A DNA stretch of 60,880 nucleotides, the filler included, from Porpidia crustulata (Eukaryota): the NCBI GenBank assembly GCA_964255105.1. It is 3 parts of 3 records of this genome, joined end to end, with 100 filler letters (N's around TTAATTAATTAA, not from the genome) between each part and the next. Parts side by side here need not be neighbours in the genome. Positions count along the whole stretch, not along the records: positions 1 to 20,243 come from CAXUWE010000121.1; 2 more parts are not named here. One strand, 5' to 3'. The translations under genes were made by a program, and so were the position numbers. This document shows, piece after piece, positions 4,767 through 40,670 of the stretch (the stretch's first letter is position 1; each line of letters opens with the position of its first letter). The notes beneath the pieces were generated by a model. It had not been told where the DNA came from. It saw only the letters and a list, made by a program, of their open reading frames with translations, and ran no database searches.

Positions 4767-7134
4767 TTACGACCCACCTCCACGGCTCTGACTCGTGTGA
4801 CTTAAGTCCTGATTCCCCGGTCGAGTCGGCTGCATCTCATGGCTTCCAGCTCTCCTACTGCTGCTATTTCCTCTAAAGCTTGCCCGTCGGTGCGTGTCGT
4901 CGCTCCCTTGTGTTACCTCGCCCCGTTCGATAGATTCCTCTTCGCTACCCCTCCTGTCCGAGACGTTATCGTTCTGACTCGTACCATTGTGGGACGCAGC
5001 GCCCGCTTCCCCGAAATTGCCGCCCACGCTTTCCATGGTGAATGGTGATGCTGTAGGCGCGTCCAGTAGGGCAAGCTCCTCCGTCGTGAAATATTTCGGT
5101 AACATGAAGCTACGGACCGGGACAAGGAGGAGAATAATGATCGGAAATCCTATGGCTGCGATCGTCTGGGTGATCGCAAAGGTGGCGCCGAAGCCGATGA
5201 GTTCGAGTGCTACGAAATACCAGATGGCTTGCTTGCGCTGGATACGAGAAAGTGGATCGGAGGCGAGAGTGAGGTTTCTGTCGCGGCAGAGGTATAACAT
5301 CTTGACAGTAATGCCATTGCCTTCCAAGGCTTGGACGCCCATGATGAAAAAGAGACCTGCAAGGACTCCTTGAGGTATCAGATGCAATACGACCAACAAG
5401 GGTCCGGACATTGTCCCCAGCGTCAGCAGCCCTTGAGCTAGGTTGGAAACACGTTGCTCGACAACATGATCCACCACCCGGGTCGTGTGGCCTTTCGAAG
5501 TGCCAGACTCCGATTCGTTTGATACTTGGCGGGTCACGCAAAGCGAGTTTGTGTGGAATGGCGCCTGTGGGATTAGTCCATTAGGGAACGGAATACCAAG
5601 TAGGCCAGCGATTCCAGTGGTCAATCCAAGGAGGAAGATGTCCCAGTGAAACCCCGCTGGCTTGCGGAGGGGAAACTCAGTGCCTTGTGCGATGAGAGAG
5701 GATACTATAAACCGATCAGCTGTCGCTTTGAGCCAGTGGAAAGCAAGATTTGACAGAACTGGAATTATGGACTGTTCTGAGTAGGAAGTCTTACCGTTGT
5801 GGTCAAAATAGAAGAGAATAGTCAATAGGACGGCAAAAGGTATGGCGATGAAGATGTCACCAATATTGATATCCCAGAAGTGTATGAACCATCCACGATC
5901 CTGGGTCGGGAAAAAGGCCATGCTTGTAGGTAGAGTCTGCAATGCTACACTGTTCATATGCCCAATGTGAATGAATCCGGTGAAGAAAATAATTGTCAAT
6001 GGCGTACCGTAGTCCTCAACAAATTTGCGGATATAGCGTTGGAACAGATTGCTACCGCCAATGAACCCACAGGCATAGCCAGTCATGAGCACAAGGAGCG
6101 AAATCATGATCGAAAGGTATGCCGAGCTTTCACCGGCAAGTCCCCACTGACGAGTCAATACCTGGATACCTTTCTGGAGATAGATGAAAGCAACATAGAA
6201 ACCGAAGATATCGCAGCTGAAGCGAGTCACATATTTGAGACCGTTGCATGCATTCGTGATGGCGAGGGCCCAGTGCATGACCAGCGACCATCTGTAGTGT
6301 TGTCAGCGGTTCCTCTTCCAAAGTTCTCGAGAAACGTACAGTCCGATCCAGCACATGAAGGCAAAATAGTTAGTCCCGCGAGGCGTGATGATATTGTAAA
6401 CTGTGTAGTTGAATACAGTGATTGGACCTGTACCGAGATCAGCTATCGCATTTGCTTAGCTCTCGAAAAGACAATTACCAGTGACACCAACGATGACGAG
6501 CGGTTGAGCGGCGAAGATGGAAAAGACCACAGACCCAAGCACCGAAGCCAGGAGAACCTCGTTGACTCCGAAGCTCATGGCTGTTTTGGAGAACATATCG
6601 AGTGAGAACGCAAGAGCTGGGAGTATGCTGATCAAGCGGTCAGTCACAGGGAGAGGCAAAGCATCAACGCAAACGAGCGAGGTCCGAGGAGCTAGGCAGA
6701 AGGGCTTCTCATGGATGTAACCTAGAGAGGCACAAAGTAACAGCGCCCACGATCCATAGCCTTTCCGCGGCGTACACATGGTCTCACAAAGCGCAAGCAG
6801 ATTCGGGACCGTACTTTGCAAAATACATATAGATAGTAGCGGGCACAACTCGATAGTCCCAAGCGTCTTTCCAATCACTCCAGTAGTACGGCACCCGCCT
6901 CCTAATATCGTTTACCATGCCCCGGAAGAGTCGAACCTTCCACCATCTCTTCTCCTGTCTGCTGGAGCCGTTCATACGAACTTGATCAACTTCGTTGGAT
7001 ACAGAGTCCTGTCCTTCTTGTTGGACACGAGACTGGTTGCGAAGGAATGGCACTTGAATTCTCTGGGGTTTTCTGGCGCCATGGTTCGACGCATGGGGAT
7101 GTGGGCTGGATGGGAGAGAATAGGAGCCATCCAT
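4767..7134 (-). CDS. BOR1: HCO3-/borate anion-exchanger (SLC4/Bor1) family transporter, multi-exon
   Basis: RRVPYYWSDWKDA..PATIYMYFA, ILPALAFSLD, AQPLVIVGVTG, GFHWDIFLLG, NGLIPQAPFHT, VVEQRVSNLAQG motifs across ORFs 6784-7134, 6456-6878 and 4767-6278; many TM segments. Confidence 0.88.
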
Positions 7135-8932: not shown

Positions 8933-9370
8933 GGAATGTGTGTCAGGGAATCAATCAAGGCCTGTTGGGTGAAATGGGAACGACCATTCGAGTGTCAAGG
9001 TCGGGCTTTTATGTGCTTCGCCAAATCCTGCGTCAAAACAAGCGAAGTGGGCGGTAGGGCGGAAGGAGCGTGCATGTGTGCATGTCTACCGATTCCCTGG
9101 TAGACATCACTGTAGTGATATTCATAAAATTCAAAAATTCTGCTCGATATTCGTATTCATGAACAACATTTATATCTATGTTTGTATTCATGCCTATTGT
9201 TCGGATATCATTAAATTAAAAATATTTGTCAAGACCAAACCTTTCCTAAAATCCCCCAACAACCCCTGTTAGGACTTAGCGCGGTGAGCATCGGCCCGAT
9301 TGGTCTGAAAGGGTGCTAAGCCCAATTGTGACTAGCTTCGCTAATCTCCCCACCACGGTAAATAGCACTA

Positions 9371-9570
9371 CCCATTTCCTTTTTCCTTCGTTAGCATTAA
9401 TATCTCCGTTGATAGCACCTAGATAGCAATTTACCCCTATTTGCTGTGGGTACATGTCCTCGGCGGGACTTCTTGGAAACGCCCCTAAAATTGTATTAAT
9501 GCTCCGTCGTTCACCAGCGATGTAAAATCTACACGCTCCCAAGGCATTGGAGTTGAATATCCTGCTCCCA
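9371..9570. repeat. Left arm of a diverged ~200-bp inverted repeat (partner 14842-15053)
   Basis: Reverse complement reads ggagcaggatattcaactccaatgccttgggagc..agattttacatcgctggtgaacgacggagcattaatacaattttaggggcgtttccaagaagtcccgcc..atcaacggagatattaatgc..aaggaaatggg, colinear with 14842-15053. Confidence 0.85.
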
Positions 9571-10840
9571 AGGAAGTACTCGAAGAGTCTTCCTACTCCA
9601 TCACTATCGGAAGTGGAGTGAATCACAAGGCTACTCACTCATCAATTCCTTCCAAGGAGGCACTCGAAGAATCTTCCTATTCACTTCATTTGTGTCTTGC
9701 AACGGCACGAATGGTCCGAGATTCTTTCCTTAGTAGGAAAGAACTAAACACGAGGAGGGATTGTGAGAGGGCTCTGGTGCCTGTTCTACTATCGAATTGA
9801 AAAGCAAACAGCGCTCCTCCGTGCTATAAGATGTATTCAAAAGCAAAAAATGGCAACTACGGCCTCTGGGCATTCTGAAAATCGCTAAAGTCAATGAGCT
9901 TGAATAGTACGGCTTGCGTCGTAATACATGGCATAGACGGACTGTGTGTGGGAACGGAGCATTGGCGCAAACTCGCCGCGACGTACGACAATTTCAACAT
10001 CATCATTGTAATTCGAGAGACCGCGAAACGACTGAAGAGACGATCAGAGTTTATTCAAGTTCAAGATAATTGATTAGAATTGCACGATTTTTTCGGAGTC
10101 AAGATTTCTTTAAGAACGATACTGAATGATACTTCGCAAGATTCTGTACTTTTTTTCATTTACAAGATATGAACAGACGAAGACGATGCGCGAGGCATTC
10201 TGAGAGCTGCAGACATCGAGATTTGTAATTCGAATGTTCGAAATGATCGCAATGCAATCTTGTGACACTGACTACGATTAAAAAATATGATATTTGTCTT
10301 CGCTGCGTGCTGCTTCGCTCGACTTGGCTATGTTCTACTTTGCTCAGCTTCGTTATACTTTCATAGACTATGTTGAACAGGCAGGGTGACTGTCGTAGTA
10401 TTGCTACTGAATTACGTACAGAACTAGAAGGTTGAGTGGCCAGGTGGTCACATAAGACAGGGGTAGGGCAAAGCCCTATCACTAGATCCAATCCATCCAT
10501 TCACACCGACTAGATAATGAGGAGGTTAGGCCTTCGTCTTACCGCACTTTCCAACAGACTAGATCATTTAACATTTTTTAATATTGCTGTGATCTCATTC
10601 AAATAGCAATGCTAATGTCGTCGAAGGCTTCATCGAGTTTTTAGCTTGATTCTCGACGTCAGAAGGTATATCCGATAGCAATATATCTACAGCGCTCAAT
10701 CTTCAAGTATTGCTATCATCTTTCGGCTTCTATTTGATTCATTTTCATAACTGCTTTTTTTCGTAATGTCAGTAATAATCTTATATCATTCACAAATTTG
10801 AAAACCTAAATCGCGTTCACACCTCATGCGCCCACGCCTC

Positions 10841-10886
10841 GCCTCACCTCACCTCACCTCACCTCACCTCACCTCACCTCACCTCA
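10841..10886 (+). repeat. (CCTCA)n pentanucleotide microsatellite
   Basis: About 9 perfect tandem CCTCA units read directly. Confidence 0.95.
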
Positions 10887-11143
10887 TCCATTCATTCTCT
10901 TGTAATCTACTTATCTTCTTACTGCTGATACCTGTGGATAACTGCTATACCCACTGACTGACAGTAGCAACTTGACAACAGCAGCACATTTTCTCAAATA
11001 TTAAACACTCAAGGGAAGTGCTTGATCTTGCCTTCGCAATAGCAGCACTAATATGTAACATCTAGGTGAAGCCTTCGTCGGGTAACGACGTCGTCGCAAC
11101 AGTCGGCTCACTCCTGACTTCCACTTTATCATTCAAACATAAC

Positions 11144-14100
11144 ATGACCACTGTGACTACTATGTCGTCTAGTCGAAATGTGTGGCAAGATTGGAATTCT
11201 TTGTGGGTCCATCTTGGTTTTGAATCCCTGAAAGAGCTTGAGGATTTCATACAAAGGGAGAACTTCGCGCCTTTCTTTGAGGAATTGAGCGATGCTGTTA
11301 TAGTACCGGATTAAAAGGAGGTAGCTAGAACTGGTAAGCTACGTAAACGAGGCCTGAACTTGAGAGAGGTGGAAAGGGCAATCATACAAGGAAAAAAACA
11401 TGGCATGGCGAGGTACTCTAGGTACCGCGTTAACAAGAAAGAGTGGAATACCACCGACCACTATGCACATTACGTGTACTCGGTGAAGGCTGCAAACGAA
11501 AAGTCCGCAGATGGTATTTTCTACGGAAAGGCTTTATCGGACAAGGACATGAGTCAGAGATGTTGGTGGTTGCAATTGCATTTGGCTTACGGTTTAGCCC
11601 CACCGCGCCTGGAGCATTCAAGAGGCAGTAAACTCGCGTTGTCAGCAGAGAAATAGACAAGCCTCCTAAATTCCATTGCAACTACATCTGCCGTCTCCGA
11701 CACTGCCGCTCCTCAAATCGGCGCCTCAGAGTCTTATACTGCGATGATCAAGAAGCAAAGCAGTATCTTTGACAGTCCCTTTGAAAATCCATTCGGCGAC
11801 TGTCCCTTTGAATCCTCTCGTACCGACAACCCGACCAACGAAGCCTGCACCGGGCCCTTACCGGGAAACGAAGAGGATGATGATCCTGATCCTGACGTTG
11901 GTCTTACCAATGCGCAAAGGATGTTTCAAGAGCGCAGCAGTCCGACACTCAATCTAATTGATAGATCGTGGAAATATGCATTGATAATGAAGCTTCTGCA
12001 GCATGTTCGGACTGATACTGTCGTGGAGCTTGACCGCATGTATGCAGATGATCGCTTGACCAACGCTCAGTCCATCGAATGGGAGCAGGAAATTCGACAG
12101 ACGTCGGAGAGTGACAGAATCGGCATTGTGCAATTCACTGACGAATGCGCCGCCGAGTACGACATGCAGCAAGGCTGGATGGATTCTCTCGATCTACAGC
12201 GAGAGGATCATGAGGCAGCCTGCACCTTGCTAGGCATTATCAACCCATCTGTCCCCCGCATACTAGGAATGCGACTCTCCAAAAAATTGACATTTTGGCA
12301 ACCCGTTGCCATAAAGGCTATTTGTGACTGGGCGAAATCCCCATATCTTCGGGGTGGAATCATTGCAGATGTTGTTGGTCTGGGGAAAACATGGATGGTC
12401 ATAGAATTTGTTCTTCATGTAAGCTATCAGATACTCGTCTGTTGAAGGCTTTACCAACGCTGATAATCATCAGTTATGGAATGTGCGTCAGGCTACGCCA
12501 CATCACAAGAGAGCCGCGGCTAAGCCCATTCTTATTGCGGTACCCGGAGGACTTATTCAACAGTGGATAGATGAGGTTAAGGCTGTTGCTCCGGGTCTCA
12601 AGGTCTTCAAGTACCACGGGGAGCCAAGGGTCAAGTCGACCGGGGACTGGGAGATCCTTAGCAAGTTGGATTCTGATCATCCTCTTTTTCAGGAATGGGA
12701 TGAGTGTGCTCGATCGATCATCTTCACCACTCTGGAAACACTAGGAGTACGCCATGGCCCTAGGGCTTTGGCAGCATATCTCCGGAAAGAACAAGGATTG
12801 TCGAAAAAGCAGGCCGAAGAAGCAATGAATAGGTACCAAAATTTTCCCGGGAGCCTGAGGAATCTATTTCAGCTAGTCGTTCTCGATGAAGCTCACTCCG
12901 TCAAGAATATGTATACAGAAGCCAACATAAGTCTGCACTAGCTTGATCCACCCTTTTACCTGTTCTTGACAGCTACACCCATGCCTGCGGGAGCGAACGA
13001 CTTCGCGGGGTACATGAAATTGCTCGAGCGGCCTAATCTGAACCTTCACAACGAACAGAACCTTAGAACCATGGATGTTGAGGAATGGGTCAACCCGTAT
13101 AGATTAAATGATCATCATCCCGCGGCCAAACTTCGTCTTACCAGAAAAGCTGCGAAGGATTTTATCTTCAACAGTGCAGTCGCTCCTCAAATCAAAGGGG
13201 ATTAAGTTCGTCAAATCTGGAAGGAATGCCTTCTTCGGAGAACGTACACCTCCGCCATGCCATTTAATAGCGGTGTCACAATTGGATCTTCGATGCCACG
13301 AATTAACGCCTCGGTTGTAAACTGTCAGTTCTTAGACCACGAAGCCGAGTTCTATAAAACCCGTGTCGAAGCCATGATTTCAACTCTGGTTATTAAAAAC
13401 CGCAAGACTCAGCAACTGCAATAAAATTTTGGAGTCCTGAGGAAGATTACCCTAGCGTGTATGTGGGGGGGCTTCGTCTTTGAAGTCCTGGTTAGCAAAT
13501 CCTAACTACATCTACGATTGGCTAGTCATGTCTCAACGAGCATTGGAGCAGCCTGCACCGGCCTCTTCGAAGGATAAGCCATTGCTGTTGGAGCTTCTCT
13601 TTGAAGGATCCCCCAAATTGAGAGCATTGTTCTCAAAAGTTATCGACATTGTTGTCCGAGATGAGCAAAAGGTCATAATCTTTTGCGTATATCCTGCCAC
13701 CGAGCTCCTCATTCATGAAGCGCTGAAGTTACTCAACATCGATTCTATTCTTTACTCCTCCCAGATGAGAGCGGACGAGACGGACCGTGCGGTTCAGCGA
13801 TTCAATGAATATTTAAAATCGGATTACGTGTTTATTACCTCGTACAATAAGGGCGGTTACGGCATGAACCTACAGCATAGATGCTGCAATGTTCTTATGG
13901 TGGAGCCTCCACCATCCGAAGCGGCGGCGGTGCAGGCCGCAGGCCGTGCAAGACGCATGGGAAATCCGTTCAGAGTGGTCAACGTTTACGAGTTCTTTCT
14001 GAAAGACTCCTTCAACTCCAAGCAGACAGCCCGTAACAGGCAGAAGGCTCTTCCAAGCCTCGTTGCGGAGCTTAATCGACAGATGTTCTCCGGAGAGAAT

Positions 14101-14274
14101 GGGGAGTACTATCAGGAGAAGGGAGATCTTGATCTGGGGGTATGGTGAACTCTCGACGGAAAGCTTGTGTCAGCCAAGGATCCAAGGGTAGCAGGAATGA
14201 GACCAGTGGAACCAGAGGAACTACTGACATACATCATGGGAACCATGAAGGGTGCTCGTTATGGGGTGACTTGA
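11144..14274 (+). pseudogene. SNF2-family (SF2) ATPase/helicase pseudogene
   Basis: Motif I GGIIADVVGLGKT, Ia ILIAVPGGLIQQWIDEV, II LVVLDEAHSVKN, III LTATP, and HelicC SPKL..KVIIF..GGYGMNLQ..QAAGRARRMG. One intron at 12419-12473. In-frame stops at 11312, 11654, 12939, 13203, 13422 and 14146, plus a frame change near 13470. Confidence 0.88.
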
Positions 14275-14841
14275 CGAAGCCTTCGCTAGGAGTTGAGGTG
14301 GGAATGAGGAGGAAATGCGGTAAGAGTGCGGTGAGAACGAGGTGGGGGTGGAATGAGGCGAGATAGGGATGACTTGGATCTGAGGGGGTGAGGGGGGAAA
14401 TGAAGGAGGTGAAAGGGTGAGAATCGAGCTTTGAGCCTTGACTTTGACTTTTTTGCCTCCAGGGGCTACTTTTCCTATCTGTTTCTTTCTAGCTAGCTAG
14501 CTCTGATACTGCCTCGACCATGTTAAGATCTTCACAACTGCTCATTTTAAATCATTAACGCAGATCTGCCTGACCTGTCTCCGACTGTCATACCGCAGAA
14601 GAGCAAACATTTCTCGTATAATCTTTAAAATTGAGAAGTTCCGCAGCAAGAAGAGTCGACGACGAAACATGTCTTTGACATCTCAAAGTTCCTTGACGGT
14701 GCCGGAATACTATACTTGATAAACGACAGAACTCGGATTGAAATGACGCGATGTTCTTGATGCTTTGATGTTCTTCAATCAATTCGTGATCTCGAGCGAC
14801 GAATCAGACTCGTGCTTTGATTTCTCCTCCGGCGGCCAGGA

Positions 14842-15053
14842 TAGGAGTAGGATATTTTCAACTCCACTGCCTTGGGGAGCCAGTCAAGAGAAGATTTTAC
14901 ATCGCCGGGGAACGATGGAGCATTAGTGTAATGTTAGGGGCCGTTTTCAAGAGGTCCCCGCCTGGTGCATGAAGCACAGCAATGGGAGTTGGTTGCTAAA
15001 TAGGGGGTGATCAACGAGGATATTAATGCGGAAGAAGGAAAGAAGGAAATGGG
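14842..15053. repeat. Right arm of diverged ~200-bp inverted repeat (partner 9371-9570)
   Basis: ggagtaggatattttcaactccactgccttggggagc..agattttacatcgccggggaacgatggagcattagtgtaatgttaggggccgttttcaagaggtccccgcc..atcaacgaggatattaatgc..aaggaaatgggg. Confidence 0.85.
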
Positions 15054-15397
15054 GCACATGTTGGGACACATTGGGACACGTCGTTAGTCATGCGAGATAT
15101 TGGTATGATGCATTGGTCTAGAAAATAATTCCATCCCCTGACAAAGATGGTACTCCAAGCTCATGCAAAACGCAAAGTACTCGATGCAACCCCCAACCAA
15201 AGCCCGACGCCACCGATCCTTTTGAACATTTCACAAGAAGGCTTACATACAGACATTTTCTTACCACCGCGATTCAACAAACCCATACATACTATACAGA
15301 CGACGCTTGCCTGATCCAGGCTCGCAGTTGCGTCTTACTCGGCAACGATCGAATCAGCCTTCGCAAAGGAGCGGTCCAACCCGGAATCGCATTGATA

Positions 15398-16707
15398 TCA
15401 CCCCCTAAACGCTGAGAGTCAGCTAACCGAAACATAGGTACTGCTGCTGGGAATTTGATTGCATACCTTTTGTAGGCGCAAGGCCGCATGCCGTGATGTA
15501 TTCGACCATCGTTCCCATGATCGCAATTCTATTCGAAAAGTTAGTAAGCACTGTGGTCCATGTGTAATAATGTCAAATGGGAATTGCGTACGAGTCGGCA
15601 TTCTCGGCTGATTTCAGGCCGACGCAGTTGGACCAGCCGTAGGAATCCTTGTTGAAGAGTTGCTCTCCAATCCACCCGATGACGCCCTTTTTGCCGGAAT
15701 CGTTGGTGCGACCGCCGGCCTTGGTATGTGTCAACTGAAGGTTAGGGTCTGCATCAGTGTCTTTCATATGCTTATCTTTCGGAAGTGATACTGACTTCGT
15801 GCATCATGGTTTGAGTGAAGCTACCGAGCCCATCGGCCGCTGTTTTGTGGGCCATGGCTAGTGAATCTACCACCGACTTCAACTTCTTTTGCCAAGCAGA
15901 GCATTTCTTCTCCGCCGGTGGTTCCAGATATTTGTCTAGATACCTGCGCGTAGGTCAGAAAAGCGCTAGAGCTGTTTGTAGTAGGATGCATACCAAGGAC
16001 AGATCTGAATGATAGATGGTTTATTCACGCTAGCATCCTCCGCAACAGTAGTGTACATCTCGATGTCGTTGGTCTTGAAACACTTGTTGTAGAAATCGCC
16101 AGCTTCGAAATAGTGCACTGAATCGGCAAACACTGTGCTTCCGGCAGCGGCTCCTTGTCTCGTGTCAGGAATATCCTTGAAGCGTGCTCCAGTGCAGTAA
16201 ATTATCTAAAGAAAGTTCGATGCATTAGCACGCGCATCCGTGGGAACGAAAATGTGCACTTTACCGCGTCCGTAGGCAAAACGTCTGCGTCTACAAGGTC
16301 TACGGGGGGATTCCCCCGAGTGGAGAATCTTGAAGCACCATACAAATTGTTTAAATTCGTCACGATGCCCGGCAAGTCGCCACCGTTAAATAAAAATCCA
16401 GCCGTGTCGGCGACAGCCTGGATTTTGTCTGGGGCGTTTTTGGCGACCTTGTCAAGCTCCTGAGCTGTTCTCTGTATCCTCGTAAAGGCCTGATCGATTT
16501 TGGACTTGATGAGATCCCTTTCTGATCAGCGGGCATTGCGGTTAGCCGGATTCCTGTGAATATCGTGCATCACGGCATAAAGCCTATAAAAGTGATGATT
16601 TGGGGACGGAACAGCTTACTGTCTGTGGGACAATCTTGGGCGAGAACGTAGGCATGACCGATATGAAGTATGGAAAGAAATGGGAAAGCTAAAGAGTGGA
16701 GCTTCAT
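15398..16707 (-). CDS. Secreted HExxH zinc metalloprotease, deuterolysin/aspzincin (M35)-like, at least 6 exons; 3' end approximate
   Basis: Manual splicing with GT-AG and branch sites gives signal peptide MKLHSLAFPFLSILHIGHA-YVLAQDC, then ..IIYC..PSIIQICPW|YL..SFTQTMMHE|LTHTKAGG.TND..SYGWSNCVGL..NADS. Confidence 0.78.
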
Positions 16708-18201
16708 GTTGAAGGCTGATGGTGGTCAAGAGAGAACGAGTGAATGATGGGAGAGAAAAACGGAAAGCCGAAGGAAACAGAGGAATGATAGTTTGGTCAA
16801 AGGAAGGACAAATGGGTTGTTTCGTCGCAGAGAGTTTGTTTGCATGATATAGTCTGAAGATCTGACCAGCAGAGAGGCGGTGCGTTCACACTATGGACAT
16901 GATGAAAGTACTGTGCCATGTCCGGAAATTGCGCCAACGACGAGAATAAAATAGCAGTAATCTTGCAAGACTAGCTTGCGTCTTTGTTCTGGGATTGATC
17001 GTTCGTATGTCAGACTGATCGTTTACACAAGCTAGAAGATCTGATTGGTAATGACCAACACAGCCCGAGGCCTTGAAGATTGGATTTTCGCCTGGCTCGT
17101 CGCGGACTCCCCAACGCGAGTCATAACCGATTGGTCGTCTTCATCGCTTTCTGGTGTTTTCGGTAGTCCACCGAAACTCCTAGCGCTTACCACGCTTGCC
17201 ACGGCAAGTATATCGATACGGAACTCCTCAAATATGTTGAAAGGTAAAGGTGATCAAAGTAGCTAGACCACAGCATACAACGGCTGAAACAGATGAAGGG
17301 AGGTTCACTTGGCGCGCTTTGGTACAAGGATGTTTCACCTCAGGATTTAAGGTACGAAATAAGGGAGGCGGAGCCGCTTTGGTGGCGTCTGTGGGTGATT
17401 AGCGCCGTTAGAGGCCACGCAGCCTAACCGGAAGTATCATTAATCTCAACCCACACTACGCACGGCGTTTCATCAGCCCTCACCATCTCAGAGCCCACTA
17501 ACGAGTTCCTGGAAACCTCTGCGAAACATGAGCTTCGGGTACTTGGGAATAGAATGTTAGCCCCCACAGCCATGCCTCAGACCCGAAATGTCCTTGGCAG
17601 TTGGTTATTCGCTTACCAGTTAACTACTTTCTCACCACAAGTAGTGTTTTCGCATCTAGAAGCTGAGCTATGGTCCAATCTTTCCAATCGTTGAGTCCGG
17701 ACCATCCAACCAGTCTGGATAGCCTCTTACTGTGCCTCTTACATCTCCCAGCGCCCTCGTGGTCTAAAATCATCTTGTGTTTTGAATCGAGAAGATTCAA
17801 TCTTAATTATTAAGATTAGCTGATTTGTTGGTCTCAATCTGACGATATCACTCGTATACTTATCCGTGCCCCAATGAGGCGAAGCCAGAAATCAGGACCA
17901 TGATCTTCCCGAAGAGGGAGTTTTCTCACCAGTGCGTTCAGGACGCTTGGAAATTTTCAAATTTGGCCTGGCAGTGCTCAGCGTACGCTCAAATACCTCC
18001 GGCGCTATAAGGAAACTGCGACCAACTTAAATGTCTGCTAGCAGTCTCCAATTTCTTATATTTTATACCCCATTTCCATCTTCCGTCTTGATTTATGATT
18101 GTGTCTACGTCGCTCCTTCATTGAATCTCTACACTCTTTGACTTGCTACTTACTGCTGTGGTCTTCTGCGTGCGTGCACAATAGAGGGCACAACTCACAT
18201 A

Positions 18202-20243
18202 ATGCATTATTCATACCAATTACTTCTTTTTGCAAGTGTTCTAGGCGTAGTACGAGGGACGGCCCCCCCTGAAATTACCAAGGCCCCTCATGCCTATGTA
18301 AAACGAGATGACTCCAAGGTGACTTTGAACATTGGTCCCATAACAAATTATCAGCAGACCACAGTGAGTCCGGCGGTACCAACGATGTCAAACACTACTA
18401 ACCTGAACGCAACAGACGGGTGTGAAGCAGCCTAGTGGGACTTCTCTGGCCATTTACCCTACCGGCGCGACAGCTATTCCCTCTGGCGGCATATATATTC
18501 TCCTTGGATCGGACCTCCAAGCGAGTCTAAAAACTGCAGTCAAAGCCAACTGCGCCAATGTCAATGATCAGAAATGCCTGGATAGCATCTCAAACGTCTT
18601 CAGTAGCGACGGAGATACCATCGAAGGCCGTGCCGAGATAAACTGGCTCTCGGCTGGCAGAGGAGCCGGCCATGTTGCTTTTGTCTTCTCCAAAATCGTT
18701 GCGTATCTCACCGCGAAATGGGAAGACAATGCTGGTGGGCCTCAGCCGCCACCTCTGAACTTTCATTTCCCTGCGAGCGCCCTATCCCAGGTAAGCAGTG
18801 CATCATCTGCGAGTCTCGCGGTGTTCCAGACAGCCGCAAATGATCCCAGCGCTGCATCCGTTACCATGGACGCCACTGCCACTGGCAGCTCACCGTCAAG
18901 TTCTCCAAAGTACGTTGTTCCGTCGCTCATGCTCCGAATGATGTGTATCATGCTTATCAATTGCGCAGAAGCAGTGGCCCGCTCAGCACAGTGACTGCGG
19001 ATGGGAATGGACAAGCAAAGGGTGACATTGAGATTGATCTTGACGATGCTGGGGCAAATGCGCTCAACAGCTTCTTCCACAAGGGTAAATGTCAACCGGC
19101 CCCCGCGAGACGTGACTTGAGTCGCAGAGACCCCACGGTGGTCGACTGCCTGGTCAATAACGCGCAAGATATTCTGAACGCTATGGGCGTCAACGGCGCA
19201 CTGAATGCAATTGCTCAGCCCGCAATGCAAGTCGCGACGACCTTTCCCCTTCCCGAATTCGCAAACGCAGATTATGCAGCAGCATTTGGAGAATTTGCTG
19301 TTTGGGCCGGCGACGCTGTCCCAACTGTCCTGAATGGTATCGCACAGCCTGAAATCGTACCGGCAACGATTTTCGTTTTCCTCTTAGCTGTCGCGGATTA
19401 CGGCCAAACCTTCATGCAGGCTCGAAAGCTTTTTCTTCAATCCAAAAGTCTTTTGACTGACAAGCAATTTGCATTGATTTGCCCGAGCCAAGGTAGCAAA
19501 TTCTACCCATCTTGCGGCAAGTTTATCTGTCAGGGAAAGAACGGCAAATGCACCACAGACCTGATGAAGCCCTGCCCGTGCTCAGACACTGCAGCGAATT
19601 GCCCTACCGATTTCAAGAAAACGCCTTTCTGTTCTGCGTGCGGCGGGAAAGCTGGTAAGTGCACATCTGGCAACAACAATGGCTGTGCCTGTATCGAAGT
19701 GGTCGAGGCCAACGCCATTGGCCCTGATCCCCCGACCTGGCTCGACACGCAGCAAACGCTCCTGGGCCAGATTGGCGAATACAAGCCCGGCTCCAACGGC
19801 GCCGCGCCAGCCTCCTGTAAAACCGGGTCAGGAGACATCTCCGAAATCCCCTACAACGTCTTTTCCCCGGGTATATTCACGAAATTCTGCGACAAGGTCA
19901 AATCCTCCCCGAAAGACAAACTTACCCAGATTGTTGACGCCAGCGGCAACGTCATTCCCCCCAAGGCGAAAGAAAGGAGTCTCAACCAAAAGCGTACCCC
20001 GCCACCCAATCCTAGCTCCTACTCCGGCTACAGCATCTCCCTCCAATGGACCGGTGGCGACGGTTCCTGCTCCGCCGACTGCGCCGCTTCTTACGGCAAT
20101 ATGGCCAACAGTCCCTGTGGCCACCAAGGCGGCCAACAAAACGTCATGGCCAAAGCGGGCGAAATCGACACCGGCTGTGGCAAGTATTCGTATTCCATCA
20201 GCCCACCTCCCGGCTCCTCCACCACAACCACCAGCGCGCCCAC
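18202..20243 (+). CDS. Secreted cysteine-rich modular protein of unknown function; truncated by gap
   Basis: Signal peptide MHYSYQLLLFASVLGVVRG; introns 18364-18415 and ~18910-18968 join three ORFs in frame. Dibasic Kex2-like sites (VKR, SRR, QKR) and Cys-rich modules (CPSQ..CGKFICQGKNGKC..CPC..CSACGG..GCAC). Confidence 0.8.
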
Positions 20244-20343
20244 NNNNNNNNNNNNNNNNNNNNNNNNNNNNNNNNNNNNNNNNNNNNTTAATTAATTAAN
20301 NNNNNNNNNNNNNNNNNNNNNNNNNNNNNNNNNNNNNNNNNNN
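20244..20343. other. Assembly gap with artificial all-frame-stop linker TTAATTAATTAA
   Basis: N run - TTAATTAATTAA - N run, 100 nt in total. Confidence 0.98.
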
Positions 20344-21129
20344 ATCGTTTTTGGTGGGGAGTGCATTTGCTGTCGGAGTGCAACTAGTGTCGGATTACGT
20401 TAGTATGTTACAAATACGTCCCGCTCGTCAGGGACTCAACCCTGCTCAGTGGCTTGGTCTATTCTCCCGATGCACCTGTTAAACGTATTTAACTTTACCC
20501 GCATGTACGAATGACAGCTCCGTAGTTTACATAGCGGTGAGCGTCGACTTTTTGTTGCCTCAAGTCCTCGGTTTTTCAAAAGCAGACGAACTCCGGAATC
20601 CCGGAGCGTAGGATTGGAACGTCTTCTTCCTTAACGTTAGCTTGGGCCTCCGAGGGCCTCTAGACTATCACGAAATCAAGCTCAATGGTAGTCGACCCTC
20701 CAACTCATCCTTCTCGCACCATCCCACGAACTAAGCGACTCCTGCAGAGCAACTCTTTAATGTCCGATTGGCCTGCCTCAAATGTCTGGCCAGGTATATC
20801 ACCTGGTTCACTGATTCCTTGGTTTCTCATTCCAGCACTCCGATTCCAGGACTTGAAGCGGGGACGAGTACGGACGAATTCTTTCTTCTCAGGTCACTTT
20901 GTACTTTTCGTGGACGTGACTTTGTGTTTGATTTGAGTCTCAGACGTATGCCGGCAAGTCCCTAGCGGGTTGCGCCTCACACACACGTACCGTACCTTAC
21001 CCCCAGCAGCTCGGGGCGAGCCCGGCCGTCTGCCAGAAACGGCCCGTCAACCTGGTAGGGACTTGCCGAGAGACGTCGGTTGTCTAAACTCCGATTAGCG
21101 GACTATAAGCCACATCCAGGCCCGGAGTA

Positions 21130-22955
21130 CGAAGCAGTGCGCACTAGTCTCCATCCTCCATCGTGAGAGTAGTATTTCACCAGTAGCTTCAAATACTTCA
21201 AACACATAATAATAATCGAAAAACCATCTGTTTCCTATTGCGGCTAGTCTACTACCACTTCGTCGCAAGCCCTTTGCGCTGTTTGGCTGGCGCCATACGC
21301 ACGGGCATGGTTTTAATGAGCTTCCAAATGTCTGCGTTCGTGATCTTACCTCATTCTTCAAGCACGACGTCAATCATTTAATATTTGTTTGTAATAGAGT
21401 GCTCTCTGACCTTGATACGTGACTTGATGAGTCTCCAGATGTGCTCAACGATGTTAAAATCGGGCGAACTGAGCGGCGAAGCCACGAAGTCAATGTCCCT
21501 GTCCAGTTTGGCTTCTTTAACTGGATTCATGTCCTTCACAAACAGTTCATGAGCTGAGTTACCGTCGTTATTAGTTTAGTAGACAAGTGCCGTAACGCCG
21601 TTGTCATTGAAAGTATGAGCCCACTATACGATTGATGACCTGATCGGCGTAATCTTGTTGATTGAAGTCCCTTCTCTTGCCGTGACCTTCTAGAATGATC
21701 AAAGAACTGATTCAATAGAATCCAATCATGCCCCAAGCTGTGAACGAAGATCGACCACTTCTGAACTGATTTTGAGCGCAGTTTGGATTGTGACGATCTT
21801 CAGAAGTGCGTATAACGTATTTCGTGCCCTGCATGCTTGTTTCAAATGTAACTTCGTCGCTCCACATCCAGAGCAGCCAGTATATCAGTTGTTGCGCATA
21901 ACGATCCTCAATAATGATCCAGAACAGTCGCCTCGTAGCAGCTACAGGTTCAATGAAGGAATGTCTGCAAGTCTTGTATTTGTGATATTCACGCTTGTGC
22001 ATAGCTCTTCGAATAGTATCGTTCGAAACGTCTTCGCGCTCAATAGCTTGAGTTAACGCCTTTCTAGAAAGCGTACGAATATGATAGTTCGTAGTAACGA
22101 TATCAATTATTCTATCGACCTCGTCTTTAACTATTAGTGTCAGCGTTTCGCTTTTAACTGATGTTCTACCGAACAACCCAAACCCTAAGATATTCCACCA
22201 ACTCACAACCCAAACCTTAAGGCTTTCAACTAATGTTCTACTGAAGTACACCAAAGCCTAAAAAACTCCAAAAATGCAAAGAAAGGTTTTGCGATTTCGT
22301 TTTCTAGTGTGTGCCATAGCCCTCGCGTCAGAGGCCAGCTGAACAGTAACTGCAATTGTCTACGAAGCTTGACGTCCCTGGCACTTAGAACTCCTGTACC
22401 TGCTGCGGTACTACAGGGATTATATATCTGACTAAAGGTGTGGGCGGGTGGGCGAATTAATCGCCAAAGTGCTTGATACCGGCCTTCTTACCAACGATGC
22501 AGAATGGTAGGAGACAACGGGGAACAACTGGCTATGTCCCCTCATAAAAGACCCGGGATCTCTGCGGCGTGTGCGGCCTCGCATGCGTTAAAAGCACTGC
22601 CCACTAATTACCAATCAAGTTGAACAAATACGGGCGGGCGTTGACGAGATGTGGGAGAACGACGATCAGAGTTGACGACGATCAGAGTTTTTGCTGAGAA
22701 TATCGCGAAGCATGATTCGGGGTACAACGGTTTTTTTGACAAATGCGCGGTATCCGAAGCCTGCATCGAAGTGTAAGGTCTTCACACGCTTTCTTTAAGG
22801 CGTGTGCCATTCCGTATTAGGCTCGTGAGCAGTGGGAGACGACATTGTATGATGATTTGTATAGTGATTTGTCTCAAAAAGATCGGATGATTATGTGAAA
22901 GCTCCGCTCGGCGAATAGGGGGAGGCGGGGGCGGAGACTAGTGCACACCGCCTCG
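21130..22955 (-). mobile_element. Degenerate Tc1/mariner DNA transposon (~1.8 kb including a nested insertion)
   Basis: Minus-strand transposase remnants MSSPTAHEPNTEWHTP*.., WMWSDEVTF..WGMIG, SPDFNIVEHIWRLIKSRI..MPVRM..KGLATKW*. TIRs cgaagcagtgcgcactagtctcc (21130-21152, preceded by TA) and ggagactagtgcacaccgcctcg (22933-22955) match at 20/23. Confidence 0.88.
22155..22623. mobile_element. ~470-bp non-coding insertion interrupting the Tc1 transposase
   Basis: Separates the N-terminal and DDE halves of the transposase. Ends TTAACTGAT.. and ..ATCAAGTTGA are imperfectly inverted. Internal direct repeats aact(g/a)atgttctac(c/t)gaa and caacccaaacc(c/t)taag. Confidence 0.55.
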
Positions 22956-22969
22956 AACAATGAGCCACC

Positions 22970-23199
22970 GGTGTCGGCAAAAAAGTTCGCAAAGTGGACC
23001 TCATTCATAATGCAATAATTCTTCGATGAGTTGGCTTGACATATCTTCTAGTTGTAAACTTATAGTATAAATAGAGATAAGTGACTTCTGTACCAAAAAT
23101 TTCTTTATTAACTAGACTACTAAGAAGATAGAGAAAGTCGTGAGACATAGATTTTCCGATTTTCGCGGGTCCCACTTTGCGAACTTTTTTGCCGACACC
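22970..23199. mobile_element. MITE, 230 bp, 28-bp perfect TIRs, probable 8-bp TSD
   Basis: ggtgtcggcaaaaaagttcgcaaagtgg ... ccactttgcgaacttttttgccgacacc; flanks GAGCCACC / GAGTCACC; AT-rich interior. Confidence 0.88.
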
Positions 23200-23521
23200 G
23201 AGTCACCTTCCCGTGTCAATAGTACGATCCTAAAATCCTTCAATCCTTCACACTAGCTGGTCCTGAGTGGCAAACCATCAGCCGAAGTTGGAGCTCACGA
23301 TATCAGTGCCAGTTGCTCGTCAGTCGCATTTGAAACTTGAATCAGGTTTGATCTCAAATTGCTCGATAAACAACCGTTCAATGATCGCATACTGTTTATA
23401 TGACAATATCATCATATTTCCAAAATGTAATTGAATAGTGAATACCGTAGATTCAGCAATCGAAAAGCTCACCGCTTGCTGCTTCCCGCTAGAGACGCGT
23501 GATGTCTGTCTACACGGTATC

Positions 23522-23688
23522 CGGGGTATTAATTGTTAGTACATAACCTATACGGAAGAAGATTCTAGACAGTCTTTAATCAAAATAAAATCTAGAGCGT
23601 CTACAAGAGATAATCAGCTAGCTGTTCAAAGTAAGAGAGTCGTCGTCACTAATGCTAGCGAGTGTTGATATTAACAATTAATACCCCG
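23522..23688. mobile_element. MITE-like element with 17-bp perfect TIRs
   Basis: cggggtattaattgtta ... taacaattaataccccg; a third related end ccggggtattatttgttagtac at ~23873. Confidence 0.75.
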
Positions 23689-23749
23689 TCTACTATGTAC
23701 ATAATAGTTGGCGTGCTACCTAGAGTAGGAAGAGACTGCGAAGTGACAG

Positions 23750-23834
23750 CACCAGGGTCTGCCAAAAGTCAGTGGAGTTGTTTTGGTGGGGCCTCGGTAG
23801 GGCTGACTCCACTGACTTTTGGCAGACCCTGGTG
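23750..23834. repeat. 85-bp hairpin / mini-MITE with 29-bp perfect arms
   Basis: caccagggtctgccaaaagtcagtggagt - 27 nt - actccactgacttttggcagaccctggtg. Confidence 0.9.
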
Positions 23835-23966
23835 ACAGGACCCTGGCCACGGACGCGCGCCTACTGTGTAGCCGGGGTATTATTTGTTAGTACGATCTAC
23901 AAATACAGGGGAGTTGATTGATCTGCATATCTGTGGCTTCTGTACTCACAATCAATATCCCGGATA

Positions 23967-24551
23967 CCGGGTCTCAACTCGGCTAGGATCGGAAAAACCT
24001 CGGCGGGGGTCAGAAGCCGTACCTCGGCACAAGGTGAACGCGGGTCCAAAAGAGCAGAAACCTTATCTAGAGTCAGAAAACACATATATTCATGAACTCA
24101 ATTCTCAGCATGTACATAGCATGTACGCAACATGAACGTAGCATATTTGTAGCATATACACAGCATATGCAGAACATATGTTATATGTGTGATTCCGTTT
24201 TAATACTTAAAAACTAGGTAAATATATGTGATAATGTAAAACGTAAATGTTATTCATGAAGTGATTTATAAAGTACGTTCAACACGTGATTAATATTAAA
24301 ATATTTTAAAACATGTTATTCAATATTTTGTTATGTGTTCTGCATATGCTGTGTATATGCTACAAATATGCTACGTACATGTTGCGTACATGCTATGTAC
24401 ATGCTGTGTATATATGTTTAAGTTGAACATATGTTCAAGCTCATCTAGAATCAGCTCTGCATATGCTCAAGTTCGTCGCGGGTCAAGATTTAAAGCTAGC
24501 GATTTCGACCCGTGCTCAACTATTTCCGACCCGTGTTGAACTGTGACCCCG
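23967..24551. mobile_element. Foldback element with near-perfect ~73-bp inner inverted repeats and weak outer inverted ends
   Basis: 24106-24179 (cagcatgtacatagcatgtacgcaacatg..gcagaacatat) vs 24332-24406 around an AT-rich core. Outer ends ta|ccgggtctcaac.. and ..aactgtgaccccg are only loosely complementary. Confidence 0.75.
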
Positions 24552-24740
24552 ATAGATACCACAGTACTTCCCGTCCTCATGCCCTGCAGATTTACGCCTA
24601 CCACCTGTGAATTACAAATCAATGTTGTGTCGGGCAAGTGAGTACAATATGTCAGAACGCTTCCCCGCACGGAAATGTTCCTTGAAATTCAATCGACCTT
24701 TATGTAAAGAATTTGACTCGAACATCTGAAACACGTCACC

Positions 24741-26736
24741 ATGTTTGGCACTCTCAATCCCAAGCAGCATAAGGAGCCGTTGACCTTTATCGAGAATACG
24801 GACCGGGCGTCAGCCCTCAGTCGTACCCGCCGCGACAAGCCACATATTTCCTGCGAACTCTGCCGGGCGCGAAAGGTAGTATCTTTCGATTGTCACCTGC
24901 TGCCTTTCTCCGTTCTAGTGTTGCTCTTGGACCAAATCCTGTTATATTATCATGTCCCAATCCACTTAACGCCGCTACCTAGGCCCAAAGAGGACACATA
25001 CGTGCGGGCCGTTGCAACGCAAAGAAGTCCAAGAGAAATTATGCAATATGTGGAGACGCCATCGGCTGACTTTTCGCTTCTCTTTGTCTCTCCAGGTGCG
25101 ATGTAGTGGCCAGCCCTCGGGCTGCGATAGATGTCTTGCCGTCTCCGCCGAGTGTGGGTACCCGGGCCGCGAAGCTCGCCGCAGGAAGGCCACCACTAGT
25201 CGCCACATGGAAACACTCAGGCCGAGTAGCAGCATGAGCGATACCAATCTTGCAACGGGGACCAAAGAGCAGGTACATCGACGAGGACAAGGGCAGGGTC
25301 AGGGTCAGGGGCTGGAGCAGCCGTCTGTTGGCGTTGGCAGTGGTCAGGCAGGACGAACACAGCCACACACGGCCGATCCGAGCGTCGAAATGTGTTATCC
25401 GGAGCCCAGAGCAGACCAGGAACAGCAGCAGATGGAGCACCGGCGCTCGTCATACCCGGTCGGCGACCACAGGTCGAGCGGAAACGTCTTGGACGGACTT
25501 GACAACTGGCTGGACATGGACAGCTTTCTCAACTCAGGACTGACGGCGCCACTAGAGAATCTTGACGGCAGCGTGGAGATGTTGGATGAGGCGATGGAGG
25601 ATTCTTTGTCTGGGCACGCTGATAGTCCGACTGGTAAGTGAGTCCCCTTGATTCTTGAGCGTGTGCACATGCTCAACATGGGCAAGGCCTTAAATATTAT
25701 GGAGCCTGATCTGGTCACTGATGTGAGTTACCCACTGACAACTTCATGTGCAGGTTTGGACGATATGGCCCCAGGCACCTCGCCTAGCAGCTTTCCTAAC
25801 GCAGATAACCTGGCGCAGCCGTTGATGCCCTCACACGACGTCGTCTCGCCGCTGGCTTCGACTATCCCATCCACACGCAGCCAGCCACCAGCATCGGCCA
25901 AAAATAGTGATTATACAGAACAAGAATCACTATCCCAGACGCCCAGTTTGGGTCGCTGGTCAGGCCAGCCCCCCGCCATCTTCAACAACATCCGGCCGTC
26001 ACCAGGATCGCCGGACCGCCCAAAGCCAAGTCTAACGTCTGACCCACACACAAAGGGCCCAGTACCAGCAGCACCGGCGGCATTCTCACCAAGCTTAACC
26101 CGTCGATGGGATGTCAAAGACGGCTGCCCCTGTCTGCACCTTGTGGCCTGCCTGCTCGAGGAGCTCGGTGCAGAGAGCGCGAGCAGTGACCAAGCTACAA
26201 TGGACCTGCTGCTAGGTTACTTACGTGGTGCGTTGGTGCGCTGTAGTACTGTCTTGGATTGCGAGCGGTGCACGTCGCTGAGTGATAATAACATGCTGCT
26301 GGCCATGGCGGGGCAGTATATGAGCACCATCTGTGAGCGAATGGTCATGTGCTACATTGAGTTGCAGTGGGCACAGGAGCAGCGGCAGAGTAAGCAGCAA
26401 CCGTCGATATCGTCATTGCTTCCTGGTGTTGGCGGCGTTGATGGTGATCAGGAGGACGAGAATGGTGGCACAAGGTCAGGGTCTGGAGTACTTGACGCAG
26501 ACGACATATGGTTCTCCACGTACCGCATCGATAACGGCTACGAGCGCATGCAGGTACTTCAATGCCTAGCTAGTGTTCAACTCATAGAATTTTCGCGAAT
26601 GTTGAAAAAGCTCAAGGTGCGAGGAGGCAGTCACAGGGGACACCTGATGCTGCTGACCGAGGTTGAGAAGCGGATCAAGGCGGTTCAGTTGATGCTGCGA
26701 ACCAAGCTGAATCGCCCATCAGCCGGGAGAATATAG
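24741..26736 (+). CDS. Cluster-associated Zn(II)2Cys6 transcription factor (3 exons)
   Basis: SCELCRARK|VRCSGQPSGCDRC..ECGYP after intron 24876-25095; second intron 25634-25753. C-terminal CPCL..CSTVLDCERC..NNMLLAM domain typical of AflR-like pathway regulators. Confidence 0.88.
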
Positions 26737-26861
26737 TCTCTATAGAAATCTTCTTTGAATCGTCCTGAACACCCCAGTTATGAGGGCATTTCAAAGTTCT
26801 TAAGATAGGCGGTGGTTTTCGCCAAGCCGGTTCGAAGAAATACATAGCCGTTAACGAAACA

Positions 26862-27453
26862 TCCCTATTTCAACAATGATGGTTTTTTTCGATTTTTAGC
26901 GAAATCCGATATCTTCATCATAGTAAATAGTACGAGCGATGCATCTGTCCTCATCGATCATTATATAGATTTTATTATATTCTGATTAAAATAAGTTGAA
27001 GTTCTACATCTTGTTCATTATGCGTATATCTTTCTTAACGTTATTACGGCCATACCCGCCATATCTAGTAGTATTGGACCAAGTCTTCCAACTTGGTATT
27101 TCGCCTTTTAGGTGGTGCGGTTGGGTATTGCGCCCCTCATGTGGATTGCGCCCACCCCACCTAGCTTCCTCACCCGGGTAAACCAATACCCCTGGGGGTG
27201 GTCGTAGCACTACGTACCTGCATTCTCGATACGGAATTCCTTCCGCTTAGAAGCTGATCCCAAAGGGAGGTTTTCGCGACAGAAATTCCTTTCCCTCCTT
27301 AAGTTATTCTCCTTGTATTATAGGCTTAGTCTAGTCAATTGATATAGTTCACTACGACCCCTCACAAAGAGCGAGAACAGGTACATCGCGCATACGATTT
27401 ACTATCGGATTTCGTTAAAAATCGAAAAAAAATCATCATTGTTGAAACAGGGA
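26862..27453. mobile_element. Non-autonomous TIR element (~590 bp, ~50-bp TIRs), possibly with a nested solo-LTR-like piece (~27042-27366)
   Basis: tccctatttcaacaatgatggtttttttcgatttttagcgaaatccgata vs tatcggatttcgttaaaaatcgaaaaaaaatcatcattgttgaaacaggga|TA. The inner segment ends ..actacgacccctcaCA, but no TSD was found for it. Confidence 0.8.
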
Positions 27454-27706
27454 TAGACGAAAAGCCTGATCTTGTATCTTTCTTGATAGATTTATGATCC
27501 TGGATCGCTTTCAGTGACTCTTTGTTGATCGTTAGAAACGACGCCTATCAGCTCAGTGTACTTTTTATCCAGAATCGATCCAGATGCAATGTAAAGGTAC
27601 TGTATCATTTGCTATTCTCCACACATAAATAGCCTGCATCCCCATAGTAACTCAATTAAGTTGTTTGCACTACTTCAAGGATTTCTTCTCTATTGCTTAT
27701 GTAGTG

Positions 27707-28650
27707 TTACAAACGATAACTGGGCACCCTTTCGGACTGGCTGATGGCCCACTCCATGGCCCTTACTACGGCCTTGACCTCAGCATCCTTCTGTGGCGGA
27801 TGATGGCCCCCGCTGTGCTCCAGCTTCCTCGTTAGCCTCTCTTCGCACAACCCACGCGCGATATCCGACATGTTCTGCATGAAGTCAAAGTCACGCCTAC
27901 CCGTTACATGTACTGTCGGGATTTGTAATTTTTCCTTCAGTAATTGCGCATGCATTACTCTTGGAGCTTTGGAGCCGTCGCCCTGGTTGTAAACATCCAT
28001 ACTGTATTCAGGCAACGCAGCACCTTTCTTCTTGGCTGCGATGACGGTCCGTAACATGACGTCACAGAATAAGCGCTCGTCACGCGTCAAGACAGAGTCA
28101 TCCGCGGAGGGCGCCACTGTCATGTCCCGCCGCAGAGCGCACAGCCGCTGGACGACACTCTGGCAGTATCCGGCGTCGGCCGAAAAGGGTATAACAGACG
28201 AGAAGCACAGAGCAAATCTGAAGGGCGCCGGTGCGCCGCGGATCTGTTGCTGACACATGTATGATAAGGCGAGGGCGGCGCCCTGGCTGAAGCCGAGGAT
28301 GCCGTCAAAGGGGCCAAGTTCGTCGATGGTCGCATCGAGGTGCTCTAGCGCGTCTGCCATTTCGTCCGGCGAGTACCCGGTCGTATGTGAGAAAAAGGGC
28401 CCTTCGAAGTAGAGGCCCATTCCTGTATTGTCGTCATCGTCAGTTGCGCTGCTGGGCTTTGGATATGGTTGGAGACTCAAAAGATGTCGAGCGTGTCCTT
28501 ACCTGGTCCCCGTTCCGACAACGCCGGTCCTTCGGTAAAGATAAACTCGTAGCTCGGGTCGACTACCTTAAGGAAGGCCCTGAACTGGCTCTCGCAGATG
28601 CTCCCAGAGCTGCCCACGCCATGTAAGCACAGAATCTTCATCTTTGACAT
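27707..28650 (-). CDS. FSH1/LovG-type serine hydrolase (candidate trans-acting polyketide-release esterase)
   Basis: Exon 1 MSKMKILCLHGVGSSGSICESQF..; exon 2 GPFDGILGFSQGAALA (nucleophile), IPTVHVTGRRD (Asp), HSGGHHPP (His). Confidence 0.9.
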
Positions 28651-40570: not shown

Positions 40571-40670
40571 NNNNNNNNNNNNNNNNNNNNNNNNNNNNNN
40601 NNNNNNNNNNNNNNTTAATTAATTAANNNNNNNNNNNNNNNNNNNNNNNNNNNNNNNNNNNNNNNNNNNN

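Follow-up and report, generated by a model that had tools for sequence, protein, structure and literature searches.

The stretch of DNA analyzed here (the window; 60,880 nucleotides, filler included, from Porpidia crustulata, GenBank assembly GCA_964255105.1) contains a SNF2-family gene lying between two long inverted repeats, and we read this locus, with roughly even confidence, as three nested layers of dead mobile DNA. The oldest layer would be a non-autonomous cassette with inverted repeats of ~200 bp (the arms) that held a decayed second gene and a captured monooxygenase fragment. The middle layer, visibly decayed and presumably once mobile, is a SNF2 unit made up of a palindrome, the gene, another palindrome and a 3′ flank of ~230 bp. 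The youngest is a solo long terminal repeat (LTR). A first-pass annotation had taken the arms and the gene to be one 5.9-kb unit. Against this, no second arm-SNF2-arm layout was found, the arms are absent around the six other broken copies of the SNF2 family in this genome and at two metagenome loci of the family, the proposed ends have no target-site duplication (TSD), and the arms are more diverged than the gene.

The SNF2 gene is a pseudogene, broken by six premature stops and one frameshift (Table 1). Its helicase motifs are intact, namely Walker A (GLGKT), DEAH, TAT and motif VI (QAAGRARRMG), and its read depth of 11.2 corresponds to single-copy sequence. The description of the gene as a minimal SNF2 ATPase does not hold, because a domain of ~150 amino acids (aa) lies upstream of the ATPase and is conserved in full-length members of the family. 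Modeled from homolog P0010, this domain is predicted to be all-helical, with a mean predicted local distance difference test score (pLDDT) of 91.4. It has no Pfam family and no ESM Atlas match, and Foldseek returned nothing at E ≤ 0.001; the best VIA neighbor, a transporter, gave Z 6.1 with a root-mean-square deviation of 8.7 over 126 residues. Note that the lack of a structural match is not proof of a new fold. The predicted fold of P0010 contains the two RecA lobes of a SNF2 ATPase, at 12% to 18% identity to solved structures.

Pieces of the same family were found on six further contigs, with N-terminal parts on C131, C295 and C1386 and ATPase parts on C130, C2004 and C842. All six are cut off or stop-ridden, and four queries revealed no intact family copy in the genome, for which copy counts are lower bounds. 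The neighbors of these relics are different at each site, among them apparent genes for glutamate decarboxylase, an RNA polymerase subunit and an amidase. That the SNF2 gene is no single-copy, syntenic host remodeler is thus borne out by the six other broken copies and by their place in a clade apart. Two of the relics have additional structure. On C295, direct repeats of ~110 bp (8942-9048 and 11379-11474, 80% identical) flank the relic, with a 190-bp tandem duplication inside, and the relic on C1386 is broken up by a tyrosine-recombinase-like piece (4785-5095, L054).

Outside this genome, phmmer with the middle piece of the gene gave 488 clusters (50% identity) at E ≤ 0.001 and 54 at 1e-30, the nearest foreign cluster being 60% identical to the query. 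Species were named for 18 of 30 proteins looked up: Bacidia, Flavoplaca, Pleopsidium, Pseudogymnoascus, Coleophoma, Microsporum, Trichophyton, Emmonsiellopsis and Emydomyces, together with three Aspergillus species, Diplodia, Macrophomina, Alyxoria and Phylliscum. All 18 are filamentous ascomycetes. Full-length members are mostly 900 to 1150 aa, the motifs RHGP, NPY and GSPKLRAL are specific to the family, and database labels for clade members read “hypothetical” or “rad5,16”. Paralogs occur within single genomes, Pseudogymnoascus 03VT05 and Pleopsidium flavum having two each, and one strain of Microsporum audouinii has four overlapping records, 95% to 100% identical, on separate contigs of 260, 2.4, 1.8 and 0.7 kb. 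Among 76 metagenome loci, two belong to the family (L059 and L060); both are broken and lie in unrelated contexts with no long inverted repeats. The 15 loci on viral contigs are all distant SNF2. Word-index protein searches were insensitive, returning 1, 3 and 1 matches.

For the tree, 22 of the 45 family rows of a FastTree run were used (one row was left out for low coverage), all picked by similarity to the query, which favors monophyly. With 258 ATPase columns, IQ-TREE placed these 22 rows on one side of a branch (Shimodaira-Hasegawa-like approximate likelihood ratio test 100) and 14 other SNF2 proteins opposite, including those of this genome that look Rad5-, Rad54-, Chd1-, Fun30- and ISWI-like. 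To judge from these alignments, the family is a divergent Pezizomycotina clade apart from the host SNF2 subfamilies. Within it Microsporum separates from Trichophyton, and different Aspergillus species from one another, with moderate support. Dispersal accompanied by decay would fit a transposon-borne gene.

Non-coding sequence travels with the gene. The interval 13998-14510 is colinear with C130:9800-9259, running past the stop codon to ~14500 with a score of 160 (shuffle maximum 86, n = 200), and despite sharing this 3′ flank C130 has no arm. The exact sequence TGAGRATCGAGCTT in the flank occurs in the genome only at this locus and on C130. As a finder of further family members it was set aside: of 44 sites, 30 were inspected, and apart from the two exact ones none is at a family relic. 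The 15-bp palindrome with at most one mismatch has 19 sites in the genome (control, 8), four of which are upstream of family relics (10620, 11065, C131 and C1386), and the one perfect site lies just upstream of the C1386 relic; the C295 relic has none. It likewise failed to lead to new copies, since none of the 15 of 19 sites inspected is at a new relic, and the site on C513 falls inside a Rad16-like gene. These very places served to define the motif, so it shows conservation and not function. The pyrimidine tract upstream of the gene has a weak mirror counterpart in the purine tract that follows the stop codon (score 51, shuffle maximum 42, n = 100).

The arms are present as reverse-complement blocks of ~200 bp, as the first-pass annotation had described. 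Their local alignment scores 205 compared with at most 34 in 200 shuffles, and 164 of 196 aligned bases are identical (76.9% over 212 columns, E 3.6e-33). Under four gap penalties the pair differs by 32 to 39 mismatches and 7 to 10 indels over ~197 aligned bases. DNA and pattern searches of the 22.9-Mb assembly found three copies of the arm core, which are the two arms and C1058:2688-2775; a fourth variant exists as a loose end among the sequencing-run contigs. The arms are thus not abundant solo LTRs, and neither shows TG...CA ends or a 5-bp TSD. If two of three or four dispersed copies were to lie inverted within 6 kb by chance, the probability would be ~0.001, so the pairing has a cause, either as the ends of an element or as a local duplication. 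The third copy retains weak homology to the left arm that runs inward to ~9690, on which side a 34-bp direct repeat occurs (9565-9598/9649-9682). It lacks ~125 outer bp that both arms have in common, and no SNF2 remnant is nearby. A direct repeat on C1058 (2611-2685 and 4736-4803, 2.1 kb apart) adjoins this copy with its left member. Decayed coding sequence was rejected as the nature of the arms: a 120-aa frame over the left arm has mismatches spread 10/8/14 over codon positions, 10 non-triplet gaps in the alignment and no other homolog in the genome.

Arms and gene do not appear to have decayed together. Had the arms once been identical and shared their decay with the gene, the 7 to 10 indels per ~200 bp would predict ~50 to 75 indels in 3 kb of gene, mostly frameshifts; there is one frameshift in ~3 kb. 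Either the gene arrived later, or it remained under selection for longer, or the arms were never identical. Taken together with the C130 flank that lacks an arm, this mismatch makes nesting the simplest reading.

The SNF2 gene had also been called the only recognizable gene between the arms, and this statement has to be corrected. The solo LTR is flanked by a 5-bp TSD (GACTA at 10366-10370 and 10557-10561) and has 13 other full-length copies at 90% to 99% identity, plus partial ones; its read depth is ~200 compared with 11. The decayed second gene lies in a frame with 6 stops in 285 codons (11 to 16 in the other frames; equaled in 2.7% of shuffles), the bounds being drawn by eye. Homologs occur at C1467:4873-5916, where a 348-aa frame is open (E 6.5e-8, reciprocal 2.3e-7), and, as a fragment, on C506. 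Neither the second gene nor the C1467 homolog has a match in Pfam, NCBIfam or the PDB. By eye, the 348-aa frame (L188) has SAP-like and alpha/beta parts. A likeness of the second gene to serine recombinases or resolvases, also seen by eye, found no support (hhalign probability 0.2% with one template; no PF00239 candidate in the genome). The third relic is a 5′ fragment of a flavin adenine dinucleotide (FAD)-dependent monooxygenase, 78% identical over 101 bp to a paralog at C1279:1011 that itself matches FAD_binding_3 at E 6.7e-7, and it may have been captured from such a gene. No transposase or recombinase had been noticed in the region, and a six-frame Pfam scan of 8950-11351 and 14200-20243 (E ≤ 0.1) agrees, finding none, though a strongly decayed remnant could be missed. 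Two MULE (Mutator-like element) transposase remnants elsewhere in the genome lie near contig ends (C1076:8380-8577 and C2260:239-469).

As to where the cassette ends, TGTTAGG (9267) and CCTGACA (15143), which had been proposed as its termini, are both present and inverted. An inverted match in 6 of 7 positions with the first 3 exact is at chance level, occurring 164 times among 173,736 pairs of flank positions, and no TSD of 2 to 10 bp surrounds the pair; they were rejected as element ends. Two 8-mers turned up as direct repeats outside the arms. One of them, the candidate ATTGGTCT, was picked after the fact and, depending on tolerance, was equaled in 2.6% to 8.6% of 2000 shuffles. The 64 and 58 bp that separate it from the arms do not align with each other, 700 of 1000 shuffles being as good. 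TAYGG is absent from 9000-9400 and occurs once on the right side, with no TSD; CACT[AG] occurs on the left at 9108 and 9366 and not on the right.

Under the three-layer reading, the oldest cassette would have behaved like a Pack-type element with terminal inverted repeats (TIRs), moved in trans. The SNF2 unit would have entered it once the arms were already diverged, or selection would have maintained it long after insertion, and its loss of function would be comparatively recent. The SNF2 family would behave as a transposon accessory gene that lands at unrelated sites and decays there. The protein, when intact, would most likely have been a working DNA translocase. Its modeled N-terminal helical domain might target it to element DNA, perhaps to the palindrome, and the translocase might then open chromatin, or remodel the transposition complex, on behalf of a transposase encoded by the element and missing from this locus. 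Several results weigh against this reading. No transposase or recombinase was found in the two scanned intervals or beside the C2004 and C130 copies. The 5′ flanks of the paralogs do not align above shuffles (1 to 22 of 200 as good), the SNF2 unit has no TSD, and the cassette has only a weak one, its outer 64 and 58 bp being unaligned. The number of stops is no guide to relative age, as 9.3 stops are expected at 8% divergence and the probability of six or fewer is 0.14. Strains of the T. rubrum complex have near-identical, often full-length proteins encoded on long contigs, which is what one expects of a host gene. Finally, the locus comes from a single isolate.

A single element of ~5.8 kb with the arms as its TIRs and SNF2 as cargo, being a deletion derivative of an Inton/Enton- or Mutator-type transposon, is rather unlikely. 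Two of the three arm copies do bracket the gene in inverted orientation, the ~125 outer bp belong to these two alone, the candidate 8-bp TSD lies at a near-symmetric distance, and there is the published precedent of Inton and Enton. Such an element would require that the arms were unequal at its last jump, or that the gene was later under selection, to account for the indel mismatch, and it leaves the armless copies elsewhere and the C1058 arm with no SNF2 remnant to be explained; termini of IS3EU or En/Spm type with a TSD were not found.

It is unlikely, too, that the arms are a low-copy dispersed repeat (an LTR or a subterminal fragment), paired by local hopping or inverted duplication, with the genes as bystanders. 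The solitary third copy beside direct repeats spaced 2.1 kb apart, the loose-end variant, the lack of convincing termini or TSD and the LTR insertion that the interval received speak for this account; the chance proximity of ~0.001 for three copies in 22.9 Mb argues against dispersal (local duplication being a separate matter), as does the lack of LTR-type ends and TSD at the arms. That the SNF2 family consists of host accessory genes undergoing birth and death by segmental duplication and loss is improbable: many intact members of 900 to 1150 aa on long contigs, conservation in the T. rubrum complex, conserved catalytic motifs and the lack of a transposase neighbor are outweighed by the broken, non-syntenic state of 7 of 7 genome copies and 2 of 2 metagenome loci, by the moderately supported separation of Microsporum from Trichophyton and among Aspergillus species, and by the non-coding motifs that the flanks share.

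AcademH carries a RecQ-type helicase and Helitron a Pif1-type one, and the first-pass annotation had assumed that helicase-coding transposons use families other than SNF2. This premise is weaker than it seemed, as SNF2-encoding transposons are already in print: a passage in PMC3627910 states that Inton and Enton encode a SNF2 helicase, and a meeting report (PMC3520738) mentions them as fungal transposons of five to six proteins, from IS3EU and En/Spm. Our locus resembles these descriptions (the comparison is with text and not with sequences) in its SNF2 gene with SNF2-rel_dom and Helicase_C, broken here, in its dispersed, decaying paralogs and in its other gene relics. Unlike them, it shows neither a DDE transposase nor TSD-flanked TAYGG or CACTA/CACTG ends, and its element-like genes number two at most. 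En/Spm elements have CAC..GTG ends, a TSD of 2 to 3 bp and Transposase_21; a profile search of the genome with PF02992 gave no match, and neither did its control. Pack-MULEs have long TIRs that reach the element ends, a TSD of 8 to 11 bp and captured fragments of host genes. The locus resembles them in its long inverted repeats (~200 to 250 bp) and in the host-gene fragment inside, and it has a weak candidate for an 8-bp TSD; it differs in that the arms are absent at both MULE loci, form no family of copies and leave the outer stretches unaligned. Host SNF2 proteins (Rad5/16, Rad54, Chd1, Fun30, ISWI) have the same two-lobed ATPase fold and motifs, from which the present clade is set off by its long stem, its own motifs and an N-terminal domain that belongs to no class. 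In PMC12730594, a passage gives the ends of IS3EU as TAYGG..CCRTA with a 6-bp TSD, as well as termini and TSDs for EnSpm and Plavaka. Styx (IS3EU) has a 6-bp TSD and four open reading frames, none described as SNF2 in the relevant passage of PMC10853768, and helicases of AcademH, KolobokH and Helitron are treated in 10.1101/2023.10.20.563377. AcademH, Helitron and Styx are likewise fungal transposons with a helicase or extra genes. Our literature search found no account of this SNF2 clade and no further detail on Inton or Enton; subscription journals, Repbase Reports and supplements may hold some.

We consider it quite doubtful that the relics are parts of one undescribed multi-gene fungal mobile element comprising a SNF2 translocase with a new palindrome-reading N-terminal fold, the second gene, a superfamily-1 helicase and a tyrosine recombinase. 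C1467 carries the second gene together with a superfamily-1 helicase fragment (TIGR00376, E 8e-13), and it has a TTCAGTG/TTCAATG minisatellite in common with C131:8012-9200, upstream of the SNF2 relic on that contig. A tyrosine-recombinase-like piece at C1058:757-1269 (L055) is separated by 1.4 kb from the third arm copy; the one homolog it has is the piece that interrupts the C1386 relic (E 3.4e-25). It has no Pfam match; its Atlas rows carry Phage_integrase on 28% to 47% of members at 0.92 to 0.93, the top rows being unnamed. A supposed remnant of the SNF2 linker on C1467 was rejected, as it did not rise above reversed controls. An accumulation of repeats in the same intergenic sinks would account for these links just as well.

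The locus is no longer functional, and what it offers is access to a SNF2 clade that is widespread among filamentous ascomycetes and evolves fast. Should the clade supply the accessory helicase of Inton/Enton-type transposons, for which we found two sentences in print, it would serve as a marker for finding these elements. It would then also bear on whether transposons bring along a chromatin motor of their own in order to evade silencing or gain access to nucleosomal targets. The palindrome offers a well-defined candidate for a binding site, and the N-terminal domain is confidently predicted to fold while lacking a structural match.

Table 1. Features of the SNF2 locus, by position in the window.
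Feature	Position	Strand	Remarks
Candidate 8-bp TSD, left copy	9299-9306	.	ATTGGTCT; weak; 64 bp outside left arm
Left arm	9371-9568	+	Non-coding; alignment to right arm
Decayed second gene, family without name	9765-10070	+	Stop-poor frame 9489-10345
Young solo LTR	10371-10556	+	186 bp, TGTTG...CAACA
15-bp palindrome	10620-10634	.	GAYGAAG-S-CTTCRTC, one mismatch
CACCT pyrimidine tract	10820-10890	+	
15-bp palindrome	11065-11079	.	One mismatch; 79 bp before ATG
SNF2-family pseudogene	11144-14274	+	~1020 codons; matches to SNF2-rel_dom and Helicase_C
N-terminal helical domain of pseudogene	~11160-11620		Followed by linker, then ATPase lobes
Premature stops in pseudogene	11312, 11654, 12939, 13203, 13422, 14146		
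Intron of pseudogene	12419-12473		
Frameshift in pseudogene (n = 1)	near 13470-13480		
Palindrome	14273-14287		Two mismatches; overlaps stop codon
3′ flank of SNF2 unit	14273-14500	+	Palindrome, then purine tract; colinear with C130 3′ flank
FAD-dependent monooxygenase, decayed 5′ fragment	14503-14603	+	ATG at 14520
Right arm	14844-15053	-	Alignment to left arm
Candidate 8-bp TSD, right copy	15112-15119	.	ATTGGTCT; weak; 58 bp outside right arm

The window consists of three pieces separated by N spacers at 20244-20343 and 40571-40670, each with a TTAATTAATTAA core, and contig C121 (CAXUWE010000121.1), which carries the locus, accounts for positions 1-20243 only of an assembly of 22.9 Mb in 2447 contigs. 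The locus had been placed at a boundary between ordinary and accessory genes. This setting is not confirmed, as the contig ends at 20243 and the polyketide synthase (PKS)/P450 block lies past the first spacer; neighborhood across spacers is not biological. A Pfam scan shows fungal gene content in the window, with a fungal transcription factor, a bicarbonate transporter and an MBOAT gene to the left of the locus on C121, and no match in six frames of 14200-20243 at E ≤ 0.1. Sequencing reads at the locus, from the one run that contains it and that probably represents the source sample, show no joints and no variants. Repeat-induced point mutation was rejected as the source of decay: over 9-15 kb TpA/ApT is 0.55 to 0.81 and CpA is not depleted, and C-to-T or G-to-A changes explain only some of the stops. 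To the right of the locus, a stop-poor frame at 15150-17200 (-) has a start resembling a signal peptide, and a cysteine-rich, apparently secreted protein is encoded at 18407-20243 (+), open at the contig end; neither has a Pfam match. In the next piece, short inverted-repeat elements with arms of 29 to 79 bp, 93% to 100% complementary, cluster in 20900-27500 (for example 22969-23200, 23750-23834, 24101-24411 and 26861-27454). The cluster contains a Tc1-type transposase fragment at 21715-22257, and its segment 27156-27212 was found again on C506. Beyond it, 27710-40560 has a higher GC content (0.55 to 0.60) and holds genes for FSH1 hydrolase, cytochrome b5 and P450 beside a reducing PKS that is split among three frames.

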